Shown: positions 44,350-60,913 of the stretch, one piece after another
How positions within the stretch are numbered: the stretch's first letter is position 1
Layout of the letters: the number at the start of each line of letters is the position of its first letter
From: a virus
Taxonomy: Duplodnaviria; Caudoviricetes
IMG/VR virus record: IMGVR_UViG_3300019703_000001
Span: 21,079 to 85,078 of that record
Length of the DNA stretch: 64,000 nt
Strand: one strand, 5' to 3'
Position numbers and translations under genes: made by a program
Notes under the pieces: model-generated
What the model saw: the letters and a program-made list of their open reading frames with translations, nothing else
Databases searched by the model: none
What the model was told of the DNA's origin: nothing

Positions 44350-45960
44350 TTATATCAACATCACAGCCTTTTCCAAGGCTTCATCTATTAAACTATCTGT
44401 TTCGTCCTCAGAGAACCCTCCAAAGCCCTCTTCTTCTGATTCCCCGCCTTCTCCCATGCCCTGCATCATTTGTACATTTTGAGCATAAACAGGATCAAGA
44501 ATTATATCCCCTTTTTCTCCCAGAGAAGGGAGGTCCATTTCTTTTCTGATTTCATTAACTGTCTTGACCGACTTAACGTTTTTGGTTCTTAAGTCAGCTT
44601 CAAAGGATTTGTCTTCTGTTTCAACACCGTTAAATTTGAATTTAAAATCCTTTGCGAAGTCATAGCCGGATAGAGCAAGCCATTTATTAACTATATCAGC
44701 AAGGCCGCCGAGCAAATCTTTAAGGCCCCGGCTTTTTGAGAATAACTGCTTTGCGTCCTGGTTATCATTAAGCACATTTTGCGCCTGATTAAGCCTCAAT
44801 CCGAGTTCAGCAGGGTCCGCGCCCATACAGGAGCAAACTAACGCCCCTGAGAATTGCATAAATTCATTATATTCCATATCCCTATTACTAGGAAACATAT
44901 TTAATACTTTAGCGTCTCCATTCAATAAGGGGATATTCCATTGACCGTCTGTTCCCTCAAAGTTTGCGGCCCACTCATCCTGCATATCTTCAAGCTGCTC
45001 CGGTGTATAACTATTATCTTTGCCTAAAGAGATCCCTACTTTGGGAATAGAGCCTTTTGAAAGCCCCGTGAGGTTATATGTGAGAGAGTTTATAAAGGCA
45101 GTTACGGCAAGATTAGCCTTTTCTACCACAGAAAGGCCCTGTTTGTAGAATCTTACATCATTTAACTCATTTGAAAGGTCATATATTAGATCTTTGTCGT
45201 CGAATGCTGCAACTACCCCGCCGCCGCCCATATTATAAAGCAGCTCCTGAACAAAACGTATTTCTTCCGGGGGAGGCGTGGACTCTACACGCAATTTGGA
45301 TATAACATCTTCTATTTTGCTATACCCCCTTGACCCGCCTACTTGAGAAGGGGAGCCATAAAAACCGCCGGGAAGTACTGGGAAAATAGTCGCACCGTCC
45401 AAAACCCACAGTGCAATCGATTTGCCACTTTGGTCTGTTTCATTTTCCCACGTTATTTTATCTATTAATAGTCGGTCTCTGGTGTATTTTGTGGCTATGC
45501 TTTTAAAATTATCAGGGGTTTCAATTCCGACGTAGTCTTCACGGTGTCCGCATTCAAGGAAGTTCTCTAAAAATTCTTTTTGCTTTTCCTTATCACCGCT
45601 TATTTGCTCTTTTTCGTCTTTTAAAACAAATTCCCAACCGGGAATATCCTTATCATGTGATATTTTTACGAATTCCATCATCTGCTGTATTCGTAAAGTG
45701 ATTACACCCCCGACAAGGGGATTTCGGGGTTCAATCAATCTTAATAAATTATCGGGAATTTTTCCAAGGGGGTATACAATATTATTCGGATTCGTTCTGT
45801 TTACCGAATCATATTGCATACCCCTATTGACAGACTTGAAGACTTTTTTGTCTAAATGCTTAAGGGTTTGTTTCGCTTCTTGTACTGCTGCGGCGTAATC
45901 GAGGGCGTGTTTTTCTTGCCTTGTAGGATTACTTCGCTGCTTTTCCTTTTTCTTTGCCAT
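44350..45960 (-). CDS. Portal protein, SPO1/Twort-like
   Basis: RDRLLIDKIT.E, DGATI, EQLEDMQ.EW...G..GQW.IPLL, DMEY..F...C...GADPAELG and KTVNEIR motifs. Confidence 0.92.
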   Translation of the reverse strand: MAKKKEKQRSNPTRQEKHALDYAAAVQEAKQTLKHLDKKVFKSVNRGMQYDSVNRTNPNNIVYPLGKIPDNLLRLIEPRNPLVGGVITLRIQQMMEFVKISHDKDIPGWEFVLKDEKEQISGDKEKQKEFLENFLECGHREDYVGIETPDNFKSIATKYTRDRLLIDKITWENETDQSGKSIALWVLDGATIFPVLPGGFYGSPSQVGGSRGYSKIEDVISKLRVESTPPPEEIRFVQELLYNMGGGGVVAAFDDKDLIYDLSNELNDVRFYKQGLSVVEKANLAVTAFINSLTYNLTGLSKGSIPKVGISLGKDNSYTPEQLEDMQDEWAANFEGTDGQWNIPLLNGDAKVLNMFPSNRDMEYNEFMQFSGALVCSCMGADPAELGLRLNQAQNVLNDNQDAKQLFSKSRGLKDLLGGLADIVNKWLALSGYDFAKDFKFKFNGVETEDKSFEADLRTKNVKSVKTVNEIRKEMDLPSLGEKGDIILDPVYAQNVQMMQGMGEGGESEEEGFGGFSEDETDSLIDEALEKAVMLI

Positions 45961-51077: not shown

Positions 51078-51220
51078 CAAAAAAACCCGGATAAGGGCTT
51101 ATCCGGGTTTTTCCTTTCAGGATTAGAGTGTGTGAAAATTGTATACTGGGTGTAGCTATATAATTATAGGAGAATAATTATTGTCACTTATAATATAACA
51201 AAATTAAATCAAATCGTCAA
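51078..51220 (-). ncRNA. Candidate antisense sRNA 3 (~105 nt)
   Basis: TTGACG-17-TATATT with extended TG; no start codon before the terminator hairpin; 5' hairpin ATAATTAT-TCTCCT-ATAATTAT; perfect terminator at 51081-51112. Confidence 0.7.
51081..51112. terminator. Intrinsic terminator
   Basis: AAAAACCCGGATAAG / CTTATCCGGGTTTTT perfect inverted repeat. Confidence 0.9.
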
Positions 51221-51224
51221 GTCC

Positions 51225-52001
51225 TTATCTTGCTTTTTTTATTTTTTTTATCCTATCCTCTGTAACATCCACCCATGTCCAGCCATAATATTTGTTATCT
51301 TTATCACATCGGCCATTGTCGATGCCTATAAAATTTCTATTGTTTTTAATCGCAGCTATCCCGGTTGATCCTGAACCACAAGTAAAATCAAGGATAGTGT
51401 CTCCGGGTTTAGTATAGGTCTTGACCAAATATTCCATTAAAGCAACAGGTTTTTGTGTATCGTGATAATTTTCTTTCAAAATGTCACGTTTAAACTTTAA
51501 TATTTGAGTAGGGTATCTCAACCCATTGTCTCTGTATTCAAAAACCGGCTTTTTTTGAGAATCGGTCAAAACGCCCATTTTACCGTTTTTAACCTTATTG
51601 CCCCTTTTTGGGCCAGAGTATTCAACCATTTGAGGATCGTAAAAACACTGTTTCTCATAAAAGACAGATATTGTTTCAATAACCTTTCCCGGACGGTTTT
51701 TGACCTGAGCAATATTTGTTAGTCTCTCCTTTTCCCAGTAACAATCGTATTTATACTGACTTAAATTAGATGCTCTTAAAAGACTTGAAAAAGGTTCTTG
51801 TCCAAAAAGTATAACAGGAGTGTTTTTATTTCTTTTCATTTGACTCAATCGGTCCCACATGGGGCCAAAAGGTATAATCACATCCCATAAACACTTAGTG
51901 GTTCCATAAGGAATGTCTGTTATTACAGCGTCAACCCGAATCCCTTCTTTTATCAAAAGATCCATTTGGTCTAATGTGTCGTTAAAAAATAATTTATACA
52001 T
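51225..52001 (-). CDS. DNA methyltransferase, N4/N6 class (beta order)
   Basis: TDIPYG, H.TQKPVAL and ILDF..GSGSTG motifs. Confidence 0.92.
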   Translation of the reverse strand: MYKLFFNDTLDQMDLLIKEGIRVDAVITDIPYGTTKCLWDVIIPFGPMWDRLSQMKRNKNTPVILFGQEPFSSLLRASNLSQYKYDCYWEKERLTNIAQVKNRPGKVIETISVFYEKQCFYDPQMVEYSGPKRGNKVKNGKMGVLTDSQKKPVFEYRDNGLRYPTQILKFKRDILKENYHDTQKPVALMEYLVKTYTKPGDTILDFTCGSGSTGIAAIKNNRNFIGIDNGRCDKDNKYYGWTWVDVTEDRIKKIKKAR

Positions 52002-52031: not shown

Positions 52032-53441
52032 TCAACTTTTTTTTCGCTGACTTCTCAATAAGTCCCGTTTTTTCTGCTGCTGCTTCTTTTTAACCTCTCT
52101 GAGCTTCTTTCTTTCTTCTTTTTTCACATCAAGGAGCTTTTTCTTTTGATCTGACAAAGTGCCTGATATAGTCCCCGGCTTGCCCTGAGCTCTTGAGAGG
52201 GGTTCCAACGCATACATACAAGCTTTTATCCCATCATCAAAAACATCAACTGGCTTGTTTTCTATAGGCTCCCCGTCTTTATCTTTTTGTAGTTCATAAA
52301 TTTCGACTTCCTGAGCAAGTCGGGGACACTTATCAGGATCAATAATCCACTCCTGAGAGCGAATAAAGTCAATACCCCTTGAAACACTATCCCCGCCCTT
52401 TTTAGCAGGAATAACAGAATAATCCTGCTGCTGCCACTCCTTGATCCTTGATGGTTCAGCACTATCGGCCCTACATAGCTCATGCGGTTTGAGTATATCA
52501 TATTCTCGGTTGGTCTGAATGAACTCCATGTTTGTAGGATTTTTGTAATGCTTATGTTCTTCACCGCCCACCATCAGCTCATTATACGACCACATTTTAC
52601 CATCTTTGAACCCTATCTTTTCTATTACACTGGGGTGTGTGCTTCCAAAGTCCATACCAATATAAATAGCGTCAAAATCTTCTTCTTTATAAAAACACCT
52701 TTGAAGAGAGTAGTTATCAAATATAACACTTCCAAAATTTCCCCATTCCCCAAGGCAGTAGACCCTATAAAACTCGTAATTGGTGTGCTTGTAGCCCTGC
52801 AAAACGGCCTCATAGTTTTCATCAATAAACCTGTTATCAAGGTAGGTGGAATGAACAATAAAAACCTCAGTAGTCTCTTGATAGGACCGTTTGTCAAAAA
52901 ATTCTTTTTTAATCCAATGTTTGTTGGAAATAGGATTGAGCATTAATGTAATCTGAAAAGGCTGAGGGGCCTGCCCCCTGAGCCTTGCGTTTAACTGGTC
53001 AAAATCCCCCTGTGTTATTTCGCTCGCTTCTTCAATTACTACGTCAGTCAGGGGACCGCTGGGAAATGTGATTGATTTCACCTTTTCAATGTCATCAAGG
53101 CCCGTGAGTACTGCCATGTTGCCATTGTGCCGCACCGTGAAACTCATTTCGGTTTTATTTATATTAAAAAGGGTCTCTACCCCTAGACCCCCCTCGCCGT
53201 CCCCTATAAGCTGTTTAAATAGGGCATACGTGGAGATCCTATTAGTGTTTGCCACTTTTCTACAAATTAAATAATTATGCCCCGGTTCAGCAATCATTTT
53301 ATAAATAATTTCTTGAAATTCAAAATAACTTTTCCCGGACCCTGCCCCGCCTACAAGTATTCTGATACGGGATTTATTTTTAAAAAAATCCCAAAATTTT
53401 TCATTCATTATTAAATGAAATTTTCTAAAATCTACTTTCAT
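52032..53441 (-). CDS. terL: Terminase large subunit, PBSX family
   Basis: GGAGSGKS Walker A, VVIEEASE Walker B, LNP coupling motif; nuclease GMDFG..HP, ADSAEP and DD...A..Y. Confidence 0.95.
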   Translation of the reverse strand: MKVDFRKFHLIMNEKFWDFFKNKSRIRILVGGAGSGKSYFEFQEIIYKMIAEPGHNYLICRKVANTNRISTYALFKQLIGDGEGGLGVETLFNINKTEMSFTVRHNGNMAVLTGLDDIEKVKSITFPSGPLTDVVIEEASEITQGDFDQLNARLRGQAPQPFQITLMLNPISNKHWIKKEFFDKRSYQETTEVFIVHSTYLDNRFIDENYEAVLQGYKHTNYEFYRVYCLGEWGNFGSVIFDNYSLQRCFYKEEDFDAIYIGMDFGSTHPSVIEKIGFKDGKMWSYNELMVGGEEHKHYKNPTNMEFIQTNREYDILKPHELCRADSAEPSRIKEWQQQDYSVIPAKKGGDSVSRGIDFIRSQEWIIDPDKCPRLAQEVEIYELQKDKDGEPIENKPVDVFDDGIKACMYALEPLSRAQGKPGTISGTLSDQKKKLLDVKKEERKKLREVKKKQQQKKRDLLRSQRKKS

Positions 53442-53443
53442 GT

Positions 53444-53698
53444 TTAAACTTTAGTCTTTTGCTCCTGCTTATGAATCTTATTCAAATTATTTAAAAAATC
53501 CTGAATATCCTTAAGACATCCCGAATTAAATATGGTATCCGGTTCAGGGAAGAAACAGTATTGAAACCATTGTCCAAACCATTTGGCTTCCCCGATTGTC
53601 TCCCGGCTGTTTAGGGTTTTACATTGGTAAATTACCGTTTTCCCGGTTATCGACTCCCCGTATAGTTTAAAAAATATGTATTTATATTTTGTTTTCAT
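53444..53698 (-). CDS. Hypothetical protein
   Basis: KWFG.W.QYCF.P...TIFN..CL.DI pattern seen in small phage proteins. Confidence 0.6.
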   Translation of the reverse strand: MKTKYKYIFFKLYGESITGKTVIYQCKTLNSRETIGEAKWFGQWFQYCFFPEPDTIFNSGCLKDIQDFLNNLNKIHKQEQKTKV

Positions 53699-54393
53699 TA
53701 GTTAATAGCGGCCCAGTCTCCAAATTTATAAACTGATTCATAACCTGTGTTTAAAGAACCCATATTATCAAGGGAGCTTTTATGATTTTCGTCAAGAAAC
53801 TCATTATCCTTATACGTAGAGTGAACAGTAAAAACAGAATTACCGAAATAACTTGCCTGATTGTATAATTTTGCTTTTATCCAACTTTTCTCATCTTTAT
53901 CAAGAATAGGATTTAAAACAAGTGTTATTTGCCTTAAGTTCCTTCCTGCAAAAAGTACCGCAAATTCTGCTTCCGTCAAGGTATGAGCATCTTCAACTAT
54001 TACATGATTAAAAATAACACATCCAACTCTTCTGCAATTTAAGTAATTTCTAATGTCCGAAAAAGTTTTATATTCCATACAATCAATTATATTATTTCCG
54101 GCCTGAATTGTCAGCGGAATAATATTTGTATCAAATTGACCCTTAACACCCAAAATCTCAGCAGCCATTAAAAGAGACGGCCACGTTGAGACCTTGCTGA
54201 CTCCGGCTTTTCCTTTTTTTACAACAAGACATTTATACTCAGGAATATTTATGGCGTCAAGTATAGCCTTTTGAAAAACTGAAATAGTTTTCCCCGATGC
54301 TGCCCCTCCGACTGAGACAAGTATTTCTTCTTTTGCTTTAAACAGCGGCAAGAATTTTTTGTTAATTTTATCTTCATATTGATTTATATTCAT
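53698..54393 (-). CDS. Terminase-large-subunit ATPase-domain-only paralog
   Basis: GGAASGKT, VIVEDAH, LVLNP, WIK, VHSTYKDNEF and YKFGDW align colinearly with TerL residues ~1-235; no nuclease domain. Confidence 0.85.
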   Translation of the reverse strand: MNINQYEDKINKKFLPLFKAKEEILVSVGGAASGKTISVFQKAILDAINIPEYKCLVVKKGKAGVSKVSTWPSLLMAAEILGVKGQFDTNIIPLTIQAGNNIIDCMEYKTFSDIRNYLNCRRVGCVIFNHVIVEDAHTLTEAEFAVLFAGRNLRQITLVLNPILDKDEKSWIKAKLYNQASYFGNSVFTVHSTYKDNEFLDENHKSSLDNMGSLNTGYESVYKFGDWAAIN

Positions 54394-54402
54394 GGTTTCA
54401 CC

Positions 54403-54636
54403 TCACTTTTCTTTTTTTTTATTTGAAATAATTTCCCTGATTCTTTTTATGTAATTGTCTACAATCTGCCTTTGTACAGACAATAGATTTTCTTTTTCAC
54501 TCATGTTACTGCCCCTTTTTAACCAATCTCCACCTTCTGCATGACATAGGAAAACAAGTGGGAAGCTTGCCATTTCCACAGATTTTAAGAAGATCGCAGT
54601 TCCGGCATGAGGTTTTTTCATTATTTCTATCTTCAA
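54403..54636 (-). CDS. Hypothetical protein (uncertain start; overlaps its neighbour)
   Basis: Only the C-terminal half (MSEKEN...) has a plausible start. Confidence 0.35.
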   Translation of the reverse strand: MKIEIMKKPHAGTAIFLKSVEMASFPLVFLCHAEGGDWLKRGSNMSEKENLLSVQRQIVDNYIKRIREIISNKKKEK

Positions 54637-54769
54637 GCCATTTAATATAGTGGCTCATATATTCATCCATCTCCATTGTAAATTTTATCCAATGAAAAGA
54701 TCCTTTAAATTCAGGTTCGTTCATCCCTGTTTCGGCCTCAAATTCTTTCCTATATTTCATCTTCACCAT
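54506..54769 (-). CDS. Hypothetical protein, paralog of 47403-47678
   Basis: MKYRKEFEAETGM.EP...Y.KWLE; C-terminal Cys cluster. Confidence 0.6.
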   Translation of the reverse strand: MVKMKYRKEFEAETGMNEPEFKGSFHWIKFTMEMDEYMSHYIKWLEDRNNEKTSCRNCDLLKICGNGKLPTCFPMSCRRWRLVKKGQ

Positions 54770-55085
54770 CCTTTAATTTTTTAAGATATTCTTTTAACGC
54801 ATTCAAAAGATTTTCTATGCCCTTTCGGGCCTTCTCTTCATTCTTATTATTTTCAGGGTGATAGACAAACCCCTGCCATACTCTAAAGCCCTTGCTCATG
54901 CATTGAGACAAAGGGCAATTAGAGCAGTCGTAATAATTACAGCAAGGGCAGTGGTTATCCATTTGTTCTATCTTATCCCACATCGAAAGCTCTTCTTTAG
55001 TTTTTGGAAAGTCGTCAACAAGCTCCTGAACCATTTCAATACTTAAATCAATAGTTTCAATTTCTGTTGGTCTCGACATAATCAC
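54750..55085 (-). CDS. Cys-rich hypothetical protein
   Basis: CPCC...CSNCPL..C. Confidence 0.6.
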   Translation of the reverse strand: MIMSRPTEIETIDLSIEMVQELVDDFPKTKEELSMWDKIEQMDNHCPCCNYYDCSNCPLSQCMSKGFRVWQGFVYHPENNKNEEKARKGIENLLNALKEYLKKLKDGEDEI

Positions 55086-55648
55086 CCCTCCTTATCTTTT
55101 TTATCCGACTTTTCATTTAATATTTCAGCCGGTATTATTTCAATGTTTACGTCTAATTTCTCCCGTGGGTCTGTCATCTTAAGCACATTTAATTTTTGAG
55201 CTAAGGCTGTTGTTTTAGGATGAAGCTTTACGTCAACAACCCTTGTTACACCGTCTTTGTTTTCAACCTCCGTTTGTTTGAGGCTTTGAATAACCCTTGT
55301 ATCTATATCCTTAAAGTCTTTAACAACTAACCCTTTTACGGGGTCATAATCCACAATGTCATTAATATCGCTTGTAGCCAAATTATGAACAGCCCCCAAG
55401 GTTTCACCCCTCATCTGCTGTCTATTTTCCCAAAATTCTTCATCCATTTCGGCTATAGCCTGTTTAATGCAAGGCTTTGCTAGCAATTTAGGCGCATTTG
55501 CTCTCGCTGTGTCATATTTAGACTTTGTATACACCCGCATATAAGCCTTTGTTCCATTCCTCAAGTGAAAGTATTCAATCAAAAAAGCTCTATGTTTTTC
55601 GCTTTTAATTTTTTTGAGTGCGGGACTTCCTGTCGGTGCATAATCCAT
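55082..55648 (-). CDS. terS: Terminase small subunit
   Basis: FLIEY....NGT.AY..VY....DTAR.NA.KLL.KP.IK.AI helix-turn-helix and VKL..K..AL motifs. Confidence 0.88.
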   Translation of the reverse strand: MDYAPTGSPALKKIKSEKHRAFLIEYFHLRNGTKAYMRVYTKSKYDTARANAPKLLAKPCIKQAIAEMDEEFWENRQQMRGETLGAVHNLATSDINDIVDYDPVKGLVVKDFKDIDTRVIQSLKQTEVENKDGVTRVVDVKLHPKTTALAQKLNVLKMTDPREKLDVNIEIIPAEILNEKSDKKDKEG

Positions 55649-55671: not shown

Positions 55672-56046
55672 TTAATCTCTTTTTGGTTTCCAATTATCAC
55701 AAACAAGACCATCAAAATAATCTTTACAGTCTTGGCAAACGAATCTTTTAATACATGGAGTTCCGTAAAGGGGACAGGTTGAACATTCTATAAAATGTCT
55801 ACAATCAGCACATTTTTTTTCTCCCCAATCTTCTGGAATTAGTTCCATAAAAGCTTTGACGTCTTCTTCTCCAAAAAGTTTTACTTTAGATTTAAATTGT
55901 TCTACACTTGTGAAGATACGATCTACAATACATATATCATTGCAATAGTGTCGCGTATCGCCTTTATCATAAAAAGCGAAAGCATGTTCTCCAATTACTT
56001 CTGTTAAATCTACAAACTTTATTTTACTCATATCATGTGTTGTCAT
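55672..56046 (-). CDS. Cys-rich hypothetical protein
   Basis: CADCRHF..C..CP...C...C.DC. Confidence 0.6.
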   Translation of the reverse strand: MTTHDMSKIKFVDLTEVIGEHAFAFYDKGDTRHYCNDICIVDRIFTSVEQFKSKVKLFGEEDVKAFMELIPEDWGEKKCADCRHFIECSTCPLYGTPCIKRFVCQDCKDYFDGLVCDNWKPKRD

Positions 56047-56406: not shown

Positions 56407-56835
56407 TTAAACCCCCTCTGGTATTATAATCTCAATTTCTGTTCGTGGCTCCATGCTGTAATATTTCGCCAATCGTCCTTCACAAACCTGGTTGTCGTCA
56501 GCAAATACAAGTTTATTAAATGCGTCTAAAACCCATTTATCTAAATTATCCCTGTCGGGTTTTTTAGTATAATATATTTCTTCACCATTATTAAGCCTTT
56601 TCATAAATTTTTTAGTTTGCTGCTGTTTTTTCGTAGGCATAAAATAAAACGTACAATTAACGATAACAGGCTTATTCTTTTCTATTGGCTTAAATCCAGT
56701 AGGAAGTTGGCTCTTGACTAATCTTTGAAACCTGTGTTTATATTTAATTTGCGGGTCATAATATTTCTCGCCGGTACGACCTGCTCTCTGTTTTGCCACC
56801 GGGTTTCCCGGTATTGTTATGTATATTATATCCAA
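56407..56835 (-). CDS. rusA: RusA-family Holliday junction resolvase
   Basis: G.PVAKQR, KPDRDNL.K..LDA.N...F.DD.QV motifs. Confidence 0.92.
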   Translation of the reverse strand: MDIIYITIPGNPVAKQRAGRTGEKYYDPQIKYKHRFQRLVKSQLPTGFKPIEKNKPVIVNCTFYFMPTKKQQQTKKFMKRLNNGEEIYYTKKPDRDNLDKWVLDAFNKLVFADDNQVCEGRLAKYYSMEPRTEIEIIIPEGV

Positions 56836-58300: not shown

Positions 58301-58488
58301 TTTCTCCAAAAGAAAACCCGCTTGTAAAAAGCGGGTTTATAGTGGGTTTGTGATTTTTAGTGCAATTTCGCCGAATCAAGCTTTTTTGCTCCCTGTTAAA
58401 TTTTTTAGAAAAATACAATCAATTAGCTATTATCTACAATTAAACATATGGCAAGTTAAATGTCAAGAGTTATTTTTGTCTAAAAACA

Positions 58489-58636: not shown

Positions 58637-60913
58637 TTAATTTTTACCGATCTGTTTCTTTTCATTCGGAGAATAAACAACAGTTTCTCTCCCTGTTTCC
58701 TTCGATCTGATAGAGGATTCAACAATTTTTTTACTCATTTTTAAATGTTCTACTATATCCGCTATTGATCTAGTGTTCATGTTTTGTGTTTGGCTGAATA
58801 ACTCACTTATTGTAATATGCCCCGACGTTCTAATCAGGTTTAATATTCTTTGCAGTGAGTATTCATATTCATTATCTGAAATATAGTTTTCAGTTATATA
58901 CATCATATTGTCAGTAAGATACTTAATTAATTTTATACTATACTCGATTTCAGTTTCCGTTATAATAGGCTGATCAATATCCTTTCCGGTTGCTAAAATT
59001 AACGCAATCTTCATGACCATCATGGGAGCCCTTCCATAAAGCTCATTATTTCGACCATCCTCCCTCAATTCGGCCCTGAATTTTGATATATACATCTTGA
59101 ACTCCTTTAAAAGCCCTGCTGCCGCTGGTGTCTCCTCTACTATCAGTGGATTGCAATTAGTATGATCAATATTGCCTTGAGGATCACAATTAATTGGTTT
59201 TTTAGATAACACTTTTATTTGTGTCAACAAAGACGACGGGGGCAGTCTTCTTATATCAATATCCTGCTCCGGCGGATCTTCATTCTCTGACTCAAATATT
59301 AGCATCCTTGATAACAAACCATCCCTGATATTTTCCGGGCTAAGCCCCTTGTATAGCGTATCCGGGACCGTTGTTCCGTAAAGGCATAAACAAGGGCGGT
59401 CTATTACAATTTGGTTTTCTTTGTCTGCATAAGTTTTACCGTAATAAACCTGATCCGAACTTGAAAACAATGTTAACAATGTAGGGACAATATTAACTCT
59501 ATAAGACGCCTGCTGCCGTACTTTGTTCGTACTCTTGAAAAAATGCCCTATCTCATCCATCAACAGCAGTGTGGATTGCTCTACAGTAAGCGCCGTATTG
59601 ATCGCACTATCAGAGGCTACATTCTCATTTGCGGCCATCATTTCACATCCGGCATCCTTAAAACATCTTTTAATTACCTTCCGTGCAAAGTCCTTGCCGC
59701 AAGACTGCGCTCCCACTCCCATTGTATACAAGTTTGGAGCAAGGCCTGTCTTTGTCTGTACTTTCCGCCCAGCAAGACATCCGACCGCTGTTAGAGCTGC
59801 ACCCAGCGCAAGAATGGGCTGCGGTTTAATAGACTGCATGTTGATATAATCGATTAAATCCCCCACCAACCCCCCAGGATTGAGCAATTCCTTTAAAAAA
59901 GGCTTTCTATCCGGCATATGGTACTCAATCCGGGCCTTAGACCGCTCTAATGCGTCAAAATGGTCTTCTGTGACAACATAAACATTATTGTCCGAAACAG
60001 CAGGTGTTTTCCCGGAAATAACATTTTGACTTTCATTTTTTTTGAGCGTAGAGACCCAACCATACTGCTTCTCTGCAATGTAAAAAATGGTCCCGAGTGT
60101 AATGTCCCCACGTGGTTTCAGTCCTTTCCAACGTCTTTCAATATCATTCGGATCATATTGGTCCGACTTGCTGGACCACTCAACCCACAGGGGTTTTGCA
60201 GAGGGACACCCGGTATTTTTAAGGGCTGTTCCTATATTAACCCATAAATCCCTATCGTCGGAAGGGATCGCCTGTAGTGCTGATCTTATCTCAATACGTT
60301 CAGCCTCCGGCAAGATTACCCCCGATGCCGGTTCTATTGCCTCAGACGGGGGCTTTTTATAAGCCTCTATCCAATCAGGCATAACAGTGCACCTGTGATA
60401 TAAATCCAGTATCCCAAGACCATTTACATCATCATAAACTTCGTATCCACTAACCCCATCAGGAGCGCACACATAGCCCCCATTTGCCCTAATATCTACC
60501 GGCAATGTTCTGTCTAAAAACCGGGCCTTTGATGACAGTTTTGTCGTTTCTTTTAACCTGTAATAGTAGTGAATGCCTCCGGACGGTGTTTGAACCATGT
60601 ATGTCTCCGGCAGGGGGCCGAAGTCCGCTTCAACCGCTTCTTTTAACTCTTCAACGCTTCGGGGATCTATGGGACTATTTTTGTCTGATATATCAATAGG
60701 TTTGTTTATATCAAAATCAATAACCACAATCCCGTTCATATTTCCCGTCGGAAGTCCGATCAAAGGGTTTGAAGTCCTTTGAAATTGACCCTTTAAAACG
60801 TTTAAATCGGTTGTTGCATCATAAAACCCTAAGTTCGTGACCGGTTTTTTTTCTCTATTACAGGCAAAAATTTTTAATCCTTGATTAATATAGCAATTGA
60901 TGTATTTTTCCAA
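58637..60913 (-). CDS. Bifunctional primase-polymerase + PriCT-2 + DUF3987-like helicase-type domain
   Basis: IGLPTG..NGIVVIDFD, TPSGG.HYYY, DIRANGGYV; DDRD.WVNIG.AL...WSSKS..Y; LLMDEIG, PCLCLYGTT.P, DGLLSR. Confidence 0.9.
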   Translation of the reverse strand: MEKYINCYINQGLKIFACNREKKPVTNLGFYDATTDLNVLKGQFQRTSNPLIGLPTGNMNGIVVIDFDINKPIDISDKNSPIDPRSVEELKEAVEADFGPLPETYMVQTPSGGIHYYYRLKETTKLSSKARFLDRTLPVDIRANGGYVCAPDGVSGYEVYDDVNGLGILDLYHRCTVMPDWIEAYKKPPSEAIEPASGVILPEAERIEIRSALQAIPSDDRDLWVNIGTALKNTGCPSAKPLWVEWSSKSDQYDPNDIERRWKGLKPRGDITLGTIFYIAEKQYGWVSTLKKNESQNVISGKTPAVSDNNVYVVTEDHFDALERSKARIEYHMPDRKPFLKELLNPGGLVGDLIDYINMQSIKPQPILALGAALTAVGCLAGRKVQTKTGLAPNLYTMGVGAQSCGKDFARKVIKRCFKDAGCEMMAANENVASDSAINTALTVEQSTLLLMDEIGHFFKSTNKVRQQASYRVNIVPTLLTLFSSSDQVYYGKTYADKENQIVIDRPCLCLYGTTVPDTLYKGLSPENIRDGLLSRMLIFESENEDPPEQDIDIRRLPPSSLLTQIKVLSKKPINCDPQGNIDHTNCNPLIVEETPAAAGLLKEFKMYISKFRAELREDGRNNELYGRAPMMVMKIALILATGKDIDQPIITETEIEYSIKLIKYLTDNMMYITENYISDNEYEYSLQRILNLIRTSGHITISELFSQTQNMNTRSIADIVEHLKMSKKIVESSIRSKETGRETVVYSPNEKKQIGKN

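Follow-up and report, generated by a model that had tools for sequence, protein, structure and literature searches.

Truncated copies of the large terminase (TerL) encoded beside terL have been described in Rak2-like and phiM12-type phages (PMC5259590; PMC7760394), and T4 encodes vs.8 (219 aa; Evans et al. 2026, PMC13601566), a protein homologous to the ATPase domain of gp17. In Parabacteroides phage phiPDS1 (PMC10773633) terL itself is split, with the two halves constituting the sole terminase; a search of the literature on paralogous, duplicate or truncated large terminases returned only this split terminase and nothing on function. The ATPase domain of the PBSX family (Pfam Terminase_3, PF04466) is represented by the structures of Sf6 gp2 (4IDH) and D6E TerL (5OE8–5OEE). 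Arg158 of D6E TerL is a biochemically proven trans-arginine finger, an alternative finger site lies between helix 2 and strand 3 in P74-26 and Sf6, and the C-terminal arm of D6E and other TerLs is used for portal contact (PMC5727402). Lambda TerL hydrolyzes more slowly when its catalytic glutamate is replaced by aspartate (E179D), a change that is lethal (PMC6379665).

The gene studied here belongs to an 85,078-bp IMG/VR virus (CheckV completeness estimate 99%) whose DNA is found in freshwater-sediment metagenomes, and lies in a 64,000-nt stretch of that record that is called the window below. Located between terS and terL on the minus strand (53698..54393), it encodes a 231-aa, ATPase-only TerL homologue, referred to as the paralog. 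An earlier note on this DNA had picked it out as such and had proposed a decoy against terminase-sensing immunity or a regulator or poison of the packaging motor. We find a gene with well-conserved ends and a strongly diverged center that has lost residues needed by the motor and that, in our tentative reading, serves packaging in some capacity other than that of a motor subunit.

Results and Discussion

The gene is a genuine open reading frame encoding a homologue of the TerL ATPase domain, as ORF analysis, BLASTP, Pfam and AF2/Foldseek confirm. Its frame runs for 231 codons free of internal stops and frameshifts, as the earlier note had stated, and since the remaining five reading frames of the gene are full of stops (10–38 across two alleles), this openness is not an effect of composition. 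Residues 10–228 align to residues 12–234 of the adjacent TerL with 32% identity (BLASTP, E 3e-27), and the protein ends 3 residues past the GDW motif, followed in TerL by the linker that leads to the nuclease domain; the proposed colinearity with TerL residues ~1–235 and termination at the ATPase/nuclease linker are thereby borne out, and the whole ATPase domain, core and lid, is covered. Pfam Terminase_3 is matched over residues 22–215 at 57.5 bits, with a cut-off of 23.2. The AF2 model (pLDDT 78.6, pTM 0.81) has the fold of a TerL ATPase domain with lid, its best solved Foldseek match being Sf6 gp2 (4idh, E 7e-12, TMq 0.73), with D6E TerL also matched (E 2e-8), and an ESM Atlas model (pTM 0.87) superimposes on terminases with TM 0.82–0.85. 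A PDB sequence search with the paralog gave no match at E up to 1, and PADLOC matched no family for the paralog, orf84, orf111, orf87 or orf77.

One further member was found among 5.8 billion proteins: P0002, of 239 aa and 66–70% identical to the paralog, which scores 53.7 bits with Terminase_3. It sits on metagenome contig Ga0193982_1000007 (L016), the DNA of which is ~92–94% identical to the window on both flanks of the paralog and carries terS, small genes, the paralog, an orf84 homologue and the start of terL in the same order as the window. Start and stop of the paralog are the same in both alleles. The L016-type allele also occurs in one further sediment run. All four sequencing runs with the paralog are DNA, contigs of freshwater-sediment metagenomes, with no RNA run among those listed; one of them, X4, is a possible third allele, with 80% likeness over an initial portion of the gene, to which its coverage is limited.

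The paralog is part of a string of minus-strand genes headed by the small terminase gene terS (55082..55648; Pfam Terminase_2, 7.5e-18). Three small genes, of 111, 87 and 77 codons, separate terS from the paralog, those of 111 and 87 codons being Cys-rich, and the paralog is followed by orf84 (53444..53698), whose ATG overlaps the paralog stop (TAATG) and whose own stop lies 2 nt before the start of terL. The TerL encoded there (52032..53441) is a 469-aa protein with an ATPase domain and an RNase H-like nuclease domain (Terminase_3 and Terminase_3C), the latter being the one nuclease domain found in the 85-kb genome. Next come an N6/N4 DNA methyltransferase gene (51225–52001) and, 6 kb beyond it, the portal gene (44350–45960), whereas on the other side of terS lie a Cys-rich 124-aa gene (55672–56046), RusA (56407–56835) and a primase-helicase (58637–60913), all likewise on the minus strand. 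The Cys-rich 124-aa gene is a single copy in the window and a tandem pair (128 aa and 124 aa) at L016:7699–8472. orf84 is kept alongside the paralog in L016. No family was found for it in Pfam, PADLOC or other searches, the Atlas gave only unnamed viral clusters, BLASTP against TerL was not significant (E 11–18), and the AF2 model (pLDDT 53) is unusable.

Read from the sequence, a Shine–Dalgarno-like GAGGTG (54399..54404, minus strand) precedes the paralog ATG by 5 nt. In a consensus scan, which is the sole basis for these sites, a strong terminator-like hairpin after the methyltransferase gene (51079..51114, minus strand) ends the leftward unit and the preceding one lies at 58314–58338 (minus strand); from 58314 to 51114 the minus strand has no strong terminator-like site, so terS, the paralog and terL share one terminator-free stretch. 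The paralog is predicted to be translationally coupled to the genes downstream of it. Promoter-like sites around the paralog were not above shuffled expectation. A sigma-70 promoter match of 11/12 (CTGACA-17-TATAAT) is seen at 54086–54114 (minus strand), inside the variable center of the paralog.

Selection on the paralog was estimated by Nei–Gojobori counts from one pairwise comparison, that of the two alleles from these closely related phages, and differs markedly along the gene. Codons 1–84 (54142..54393, minus strand), holding the N-terminal helices, strand 1, the P-loop, helix 1, strand 2 and helix 2, are conserved, with 90% amino acid identity to the L016 allele, dS 0.27 and dN/dS 0.19 (binomial p 9e-4). 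Codons 85–153 (53935..54141, minus strand) hold a β-hairpin, helix 111–122, the Walker B strand and helix 141–148, stand where canonical TerLs have the GLDD-EK-KS and RLRG motifs, and are highly diverged: 32% identity in amino acids and 52% in nucleotides, dS 0.82 and dN/dS 0.92 (not significant). Codons 154–231 (53698..53934, minus strand), with the C-motif strand (QITLVLNP), the HSTYKDN motif and the lid helices, are again conserved, at 79% amino acid identity, dS 0.36 and dN/dS 0.35 (binomial p 0.011). Among the conserved ends are residues 1–28 and, at the C-terminus, the HSTYKDNEFLDEN...YKFGDWAAIN block. Over the whole paralog dN/dS is 0.55, versus 0.03–0.38 in neighboring genes. The indels between the alleles, three of them in the central segment, are all multiples of three (4/4), and a stop-free run of the 69 central codons has a probability of 0.014–0.027 under neutral simulation at 40–50% divergence; the joint chance of in-frame indels and a stop-free center is roughly 1e-3 or less.

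Judged from these counts, the paralog is kept by purifying selection in its N- and C-terminal thirds, with the central segment either relaxed or diversifying, a dN/dS of ~0.9 in the center alone being indistinguishable from neutrality. A decaying duplicate, unique to this contig and evolving neutrally, had been named in the earlier note as the outcome that would speak against its proposal; what is found instead is an ortholog on L016 and dN/dS values of 0.19 and 0.35 in the end thirds. From about codon 85 to 195 dS is ~3-fold above that of codons 1–84, a difference suggesting that the central segments of the two phages were drawn from a deeper allele pool and that the gene is a mosaic. Codons 196–231 (53698–53805), in turn, have zero synonymous differences between the phages, with dS in the flanking genes at 0.15–0.28, pointing either to recombination that recently ended here or to a DNA- or RNA-level constraint where the gene meets orf84. 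A template repeat as expected for a DGR was not found: a blastn search of the window with the gene as query (word size 7) gave only a 50-nt, 74% match in terL.

The losses were audited in an alignment of both alleles with 22 canonical TerLs related to that of the phage. Among the 34 ATPase-domain positions conserved in at least 20 of these 22, the two alleles keep 20 and 21. Kept are (TerL numbering) the P-loop, the first Walker B acid, F147, the NP C-motif, W176, T199, D202, N203 and the G-x-W end, and the Walker A sequence, GGAASGKT (residues 29–36; 54286..54309, minus strand), is identical in both alleles. Lost from both are G114, E119, K122 and S123, which belong to the GLDD-EK-KS motif, as well as E138 and E141. 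G114, K122 and S123 are invariant in the relatives, and in their place the alleles carry unrelated, mutually different sequence. The catalytic glutamate of TerL, E138, is invariant in 22/22 relatives and an aspartate in both alleles, as Asp135 of the Walker B strand VIVED (residues 131–135; 53989..54003, minus strand). R153 and R155, also invariant in the relatives, are A and R in the window allele and L and N in the L016 allele, so that no position of R153-L-R155-G156 is kept by both (R155 is all that remains in the window allele, and G156 all that remains in the L016 allele), and the RLRG loop is ~7–9 residues shorter in the paralog alleles.

The motif substitutions quoted in the earlier note are thus present, with GGAASGKT, VIVED for VVIEE in TerL, FAGRNL for ARLRG and YKFGDW for YCLGEW, and the Walker B Glu-to-Asp change and the loss of RLRG are common to both alleles. 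The further change of CRK into VKK holds for the window allele and does not extend to P0002, which keeps the arginine (VRK), making the Arg-to-Lys replacement allele-specific. R153 of TerL lies 15 residues past the catalytic glutamate, the same spacing as E143–R158 in D6E TerL, and the K122 region may correspond, by position only, to the alternative finger site of P74-26 and Sf6. The paralog is also without a nuclease domain and without a C-terminal arm. With the residues needed by the motor gone, the alignment indicates that the paralog is not a working terminase: nucleotide binding is probably retained, whereas the requirements for a ring-translocase subunit are missing, and with it DNA cutting and the uses of the C-terminal arm. 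In the TerL clade of the window phage (TerL at 52032–53441 and its relatives in the alignment) Walker A reads GGAGSGKS, lacking the P-loop arginine ("arginine toggle" or sensor) conserved in the T4, Sf6, D6E and lambda terminases.

With respect to origin, the full-length protein nearest to the paralog is the phage's own TerL, at 33.8% identity, with 133 others reaching at most 32.4%. The two alleles sit on a very long stem (1.59 substitutions/site) of a quick ML tree, in an unresolved position, and constraining the pair to group with the TerL lineage of the phage itself gives a log-likelihood 18 above that of the quick free tree and is not rejected (AU p 0.67). Base composition and codon use of the paralog give no sign of foreign origin. 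Together with the existence of relatives of the same synteny that have no paralog, the proximity to its own TerL and the constrained tree make a duplication of the ATPase half of terL inside this phage lineage, followed by fast divergence, the most likely origin, though not a proven one.

By these database searches the paralog is restricted to a narrow lineage. Among 1.84 billion representative proteins a profile search gave nothing further below 1e-30, the next matches, from 8e-16, being ordinary full-length TerLs, and no second TerL-like place was seen in 906 deposited phage records that have a homologous TerL. More distant relatives were compared at loci L035–L038, in which the portal is 55–62% and TerL 40–59% identical. 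L038, from an 80-kb contig, has terS and then terL, the small genes that separate them being different ones, and carries no second ATPase copy; L035 has the same arrangement, again without a second copy, and a J-domain protein in the terS–terL slot; L036 and L037 have a single terminase ATPase match each. As these relatives presumably package their DNA without such a gene, the paralog is, by this comparison, dispensable for the PBSX-type terminase of the group. In this phage group the terS–terL gap serves as a slot for variable accessory genes (window 54403–55085; L016:9065–9981; L038:6370–6989; L035:5201–5797), filled with Cys-rich small proteins in the window and L038, a different gene of 157 aa in L016 and a J-domain protein with HPD motif in L035.

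Several short TerL-like proteins (P0008, P0014, P0029, P0037, P0043, P0070, P0124 and P0129) were considered as further paralogs and set aside, as they keep the canonical EE, GLDD and RLRG motifs; three that were looked up are on contigs of 0.8–5.4 kb and several others continue into the start of the nuclease domain, and we treat the whole set as probable fragments or split genes. P0077 is of another kind. This 207-aa Terminase_3 metagenome protein has IWIEDA for IEEA, ends in FGDWD and is without K-x-KS and RLRG; a singleton on a 1,961-bp contig and in a different branch of the TerL family, it may be a second, independent ED-type ATPase-only form. Two observations on the TerLs themselves came out of the same comparisons. 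The TerL of L035 (5801–8251; 59% identical to that of the window) owes its length of 816 aa to an intein with a homing-endonuclease-like insert within Walker A (GSGK|C...HN|S). On gut/rumen-type loci L004–L009 and L017–L028 (e.g., L022:9989–11482) the ATPase half of TerL is 42–47% identical to that of the window and the C-terminal half has no tblastn similarity to it, a pattern which suggests that nuclease domains have been exchanged between terminase lineages.

Our preferred reading, put forward tentatively and as one that may well prove wrong, is that the paralog, a separately encoded copy of the TerL ATPase domain with impaired catalysis, acts as a non-motor accessory in packaging. It would have lost the functions of a ring motor (trans-activated hydrolysis, the subunit interface, DNA cutting and portal docking) while retaining its ability to bind nucleotide and the surfaces of its N-terminal and lid regions. 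Produced together with the terminase, it could act as an ATP-binding subunit with slow or no hydrolysis that engages TerS, TerL or DNA and so tunes initiation or motor assembly, with no DNA translocation by the paralog itself; the variability of the central segment would follow from its release from motor-interface constraints. A complex prediction of the paralog with TerL 1–425 and orf84 scored 0.00 without controls and is evidence neither for nor against such contacts. Since the same terS–terL slot carries unrelated accessory genes in relatives, the position of the gene would suit a packaging factor no better than a gene for host interaction or competition.

The alternatives have to be set against the same data. 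We hold it unlikely that the gene is a functionless relic, left by duplication or by recombination with the terS–terL module of another phage and drifting to loss, its frame open by chance or only since its translation aids expression of orf84 and terL. A relic would account for the occurrence in only two closely related phages and the absence from L035–L038, for the loss of invariant catalytic motifs, for the very long stem branch and for a dN/dS of 0.92 in the center and 0.55 overall against 0.03–0.38 in the neighbors; it sits poorly with the purifying selection seen in codons 1–84 (0.19, p 9e-4) and 154–231 (0.35, p 0.011), with four out of four indels in frame and an AT-rich center that is 52% identical and nevertheless stop-free (P ~0.02), with the identical start and stop of the two alleles, and with a ribosome site of its own. 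Recruitment as a P-loop NTPase outside packaging (in DNA metabolism, transcription or host takeover), with the proximity to terL a mere trace of origin, has a parallel in T4 vs.8, which lies far from gene 17, next to denV among other vs genes. The paralog, however, is embedded between terS and terL, with no strong terminator-like site and coupled to the genes that follow, and we regard such a role as very improbable.

A role in conflict with hosts or other phages is to be considered as well. An anti-defense factor would block sensors of the TerL ATPase (Avs1–3, Upx), for instance by binding without oligomerization, and its center would be an arms-race surface. The location in a variable accessory slot, the lineage restriction and a center that is highly diverged yet in frame are in line with this, and terminase-like activators that are not terminases, T4 vs.8 included, have been raised as possible anti-defense proteins that the sensors would have come to recognize (PMC13601566). 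That Avs sensors recognize the terminase ATPase fold, as the earlier note had it, is supported by the same work, which at the same time turns the expectation for a decoy around: ATPase domains alone gave >1000-fold depletion with EcAvs2 and were enough to activate Upx, and vs.8 is toxic with EcAvs2 (PMC13601566). An added ATPase domain is thus expected to be a trigger and not the shield that had been suggested. The parts contacted by Avs2, namely the nucleotide site and Walker motifs (PMC13601566), are moreover those conserved in the paralog, and no PADLOC or other family link was found for it; we consider this explanation, too, unlikely. As a weapon against competitors, the paralog would be a dominant-negative subunit that enters the terminase ring of related co-infecting phages or of satellites and stalls it, the phage's own TerL being insensitive. 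One would then expect what is seen in the catalytic glutamate and trans-finger motifs, which are gone from a fold that is kept, and the variable segment spans, by inference, the subunit-interface region of canonical TerLs. The same loss of interface motifs argues equally against entry into a ring, the proposal is purely inferential and no precedent was found in the literature searched, so that we give it little credence. The broader idea of a counter-defense or competition device, in which a nucleotide-bound TerL-like scaffold would present a swappable arms-race center to Avs1–3/Upx or to rival rings, strikes us as rather improbable; if true, phages of many groups would have arrived repeatedly and convergently at the same solution in the form of truncated terminase copies.

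Conclusions

Truncated packaging-ATPase copies beside terL occur in several unrelated phage groups. To these the paralog adds, as far as its sequence can tell, a particular pattern of loss, in which nucleotide binding and the lid are kept and the catalytic glutamate, both candidate finger motifs, the nuclease and the portal arm are lost. Should truncated terminases modulate motor assembly, they would represent a new control layer on a textbook machine, and should they act on terminase-sensing immunity, they would bear on how phages cope with Avs and Upx.

The paralog and the PBSX-family ATPase domain agree in fold, in domain boundaries and in having a lid, and both carry Walker A, the NP C-motif, the TYKDN motif and the first acid of Walker B; the paralog differs from PBSX TerLs in having Asp for the catalytic glutamate and in being without GLDD-EK-KS, RLRG, the nuclease domain and the C-terminal arm. 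Like the first part of the split terL of phiPDS1, it is an ORF ending at the ATPase/nuclease boundary. In contrast to that phage, in which the two halves are all the terminase there is, this genome has a complete TerL and no second nuclease domain; the paralog as one half of a split terminase was rejected on the grounds that a complete TerL follows it and that the 85-kb genome has no separate nuclease ORF. T4 vs.8 is similar in its length of ~220 aa, its terminase-type P-loop ATPase fold without nuclease, the presence of an intact TerL in the phage and its lineage restriction. The two have, however, no detectable similarity past the P-loop (BLASTP E 0.083), and vs.8 has a canonical DE Walker B, where the paralog has ED, and an 88-residue N-terminal extension; it ends ~40 residues after Walker B, without the C-motif and lid that the paralog has, and is encoded far from gene 17 and not between terS and terL. 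Activation of EcAvs2 has been reported for vs.8 (PMC13601566).

The Rak2-like and phiM12 copies resemble the paralog in arrangement, with a partial set of TerL domains beside an intact terL, conserved within a phage group; in the present case one 84-aa gene stands between paralog and terL. Those copies derive from the T4-type gp17 of jumbo/T4-superfamily myoviruses, as opposed to the PBSX/Terminase_3 TerL of an 85-kb phage. Membership in Terminase_3 and a nearest relative in its own PBSX-type TerL point to an independent origin for the paralog, set apart from the Rak2/phiM12 copies by the descriptions of the latter. The paralog is, then, a probably independent PBSX-family example of an already described class, and as such a modest addition to it; specific to it are the full ATPase domain with lid, the Glu-to-Asp replacement together with the loss of both candidate finger motifs, and the combination of conserved ends with a diverged center.
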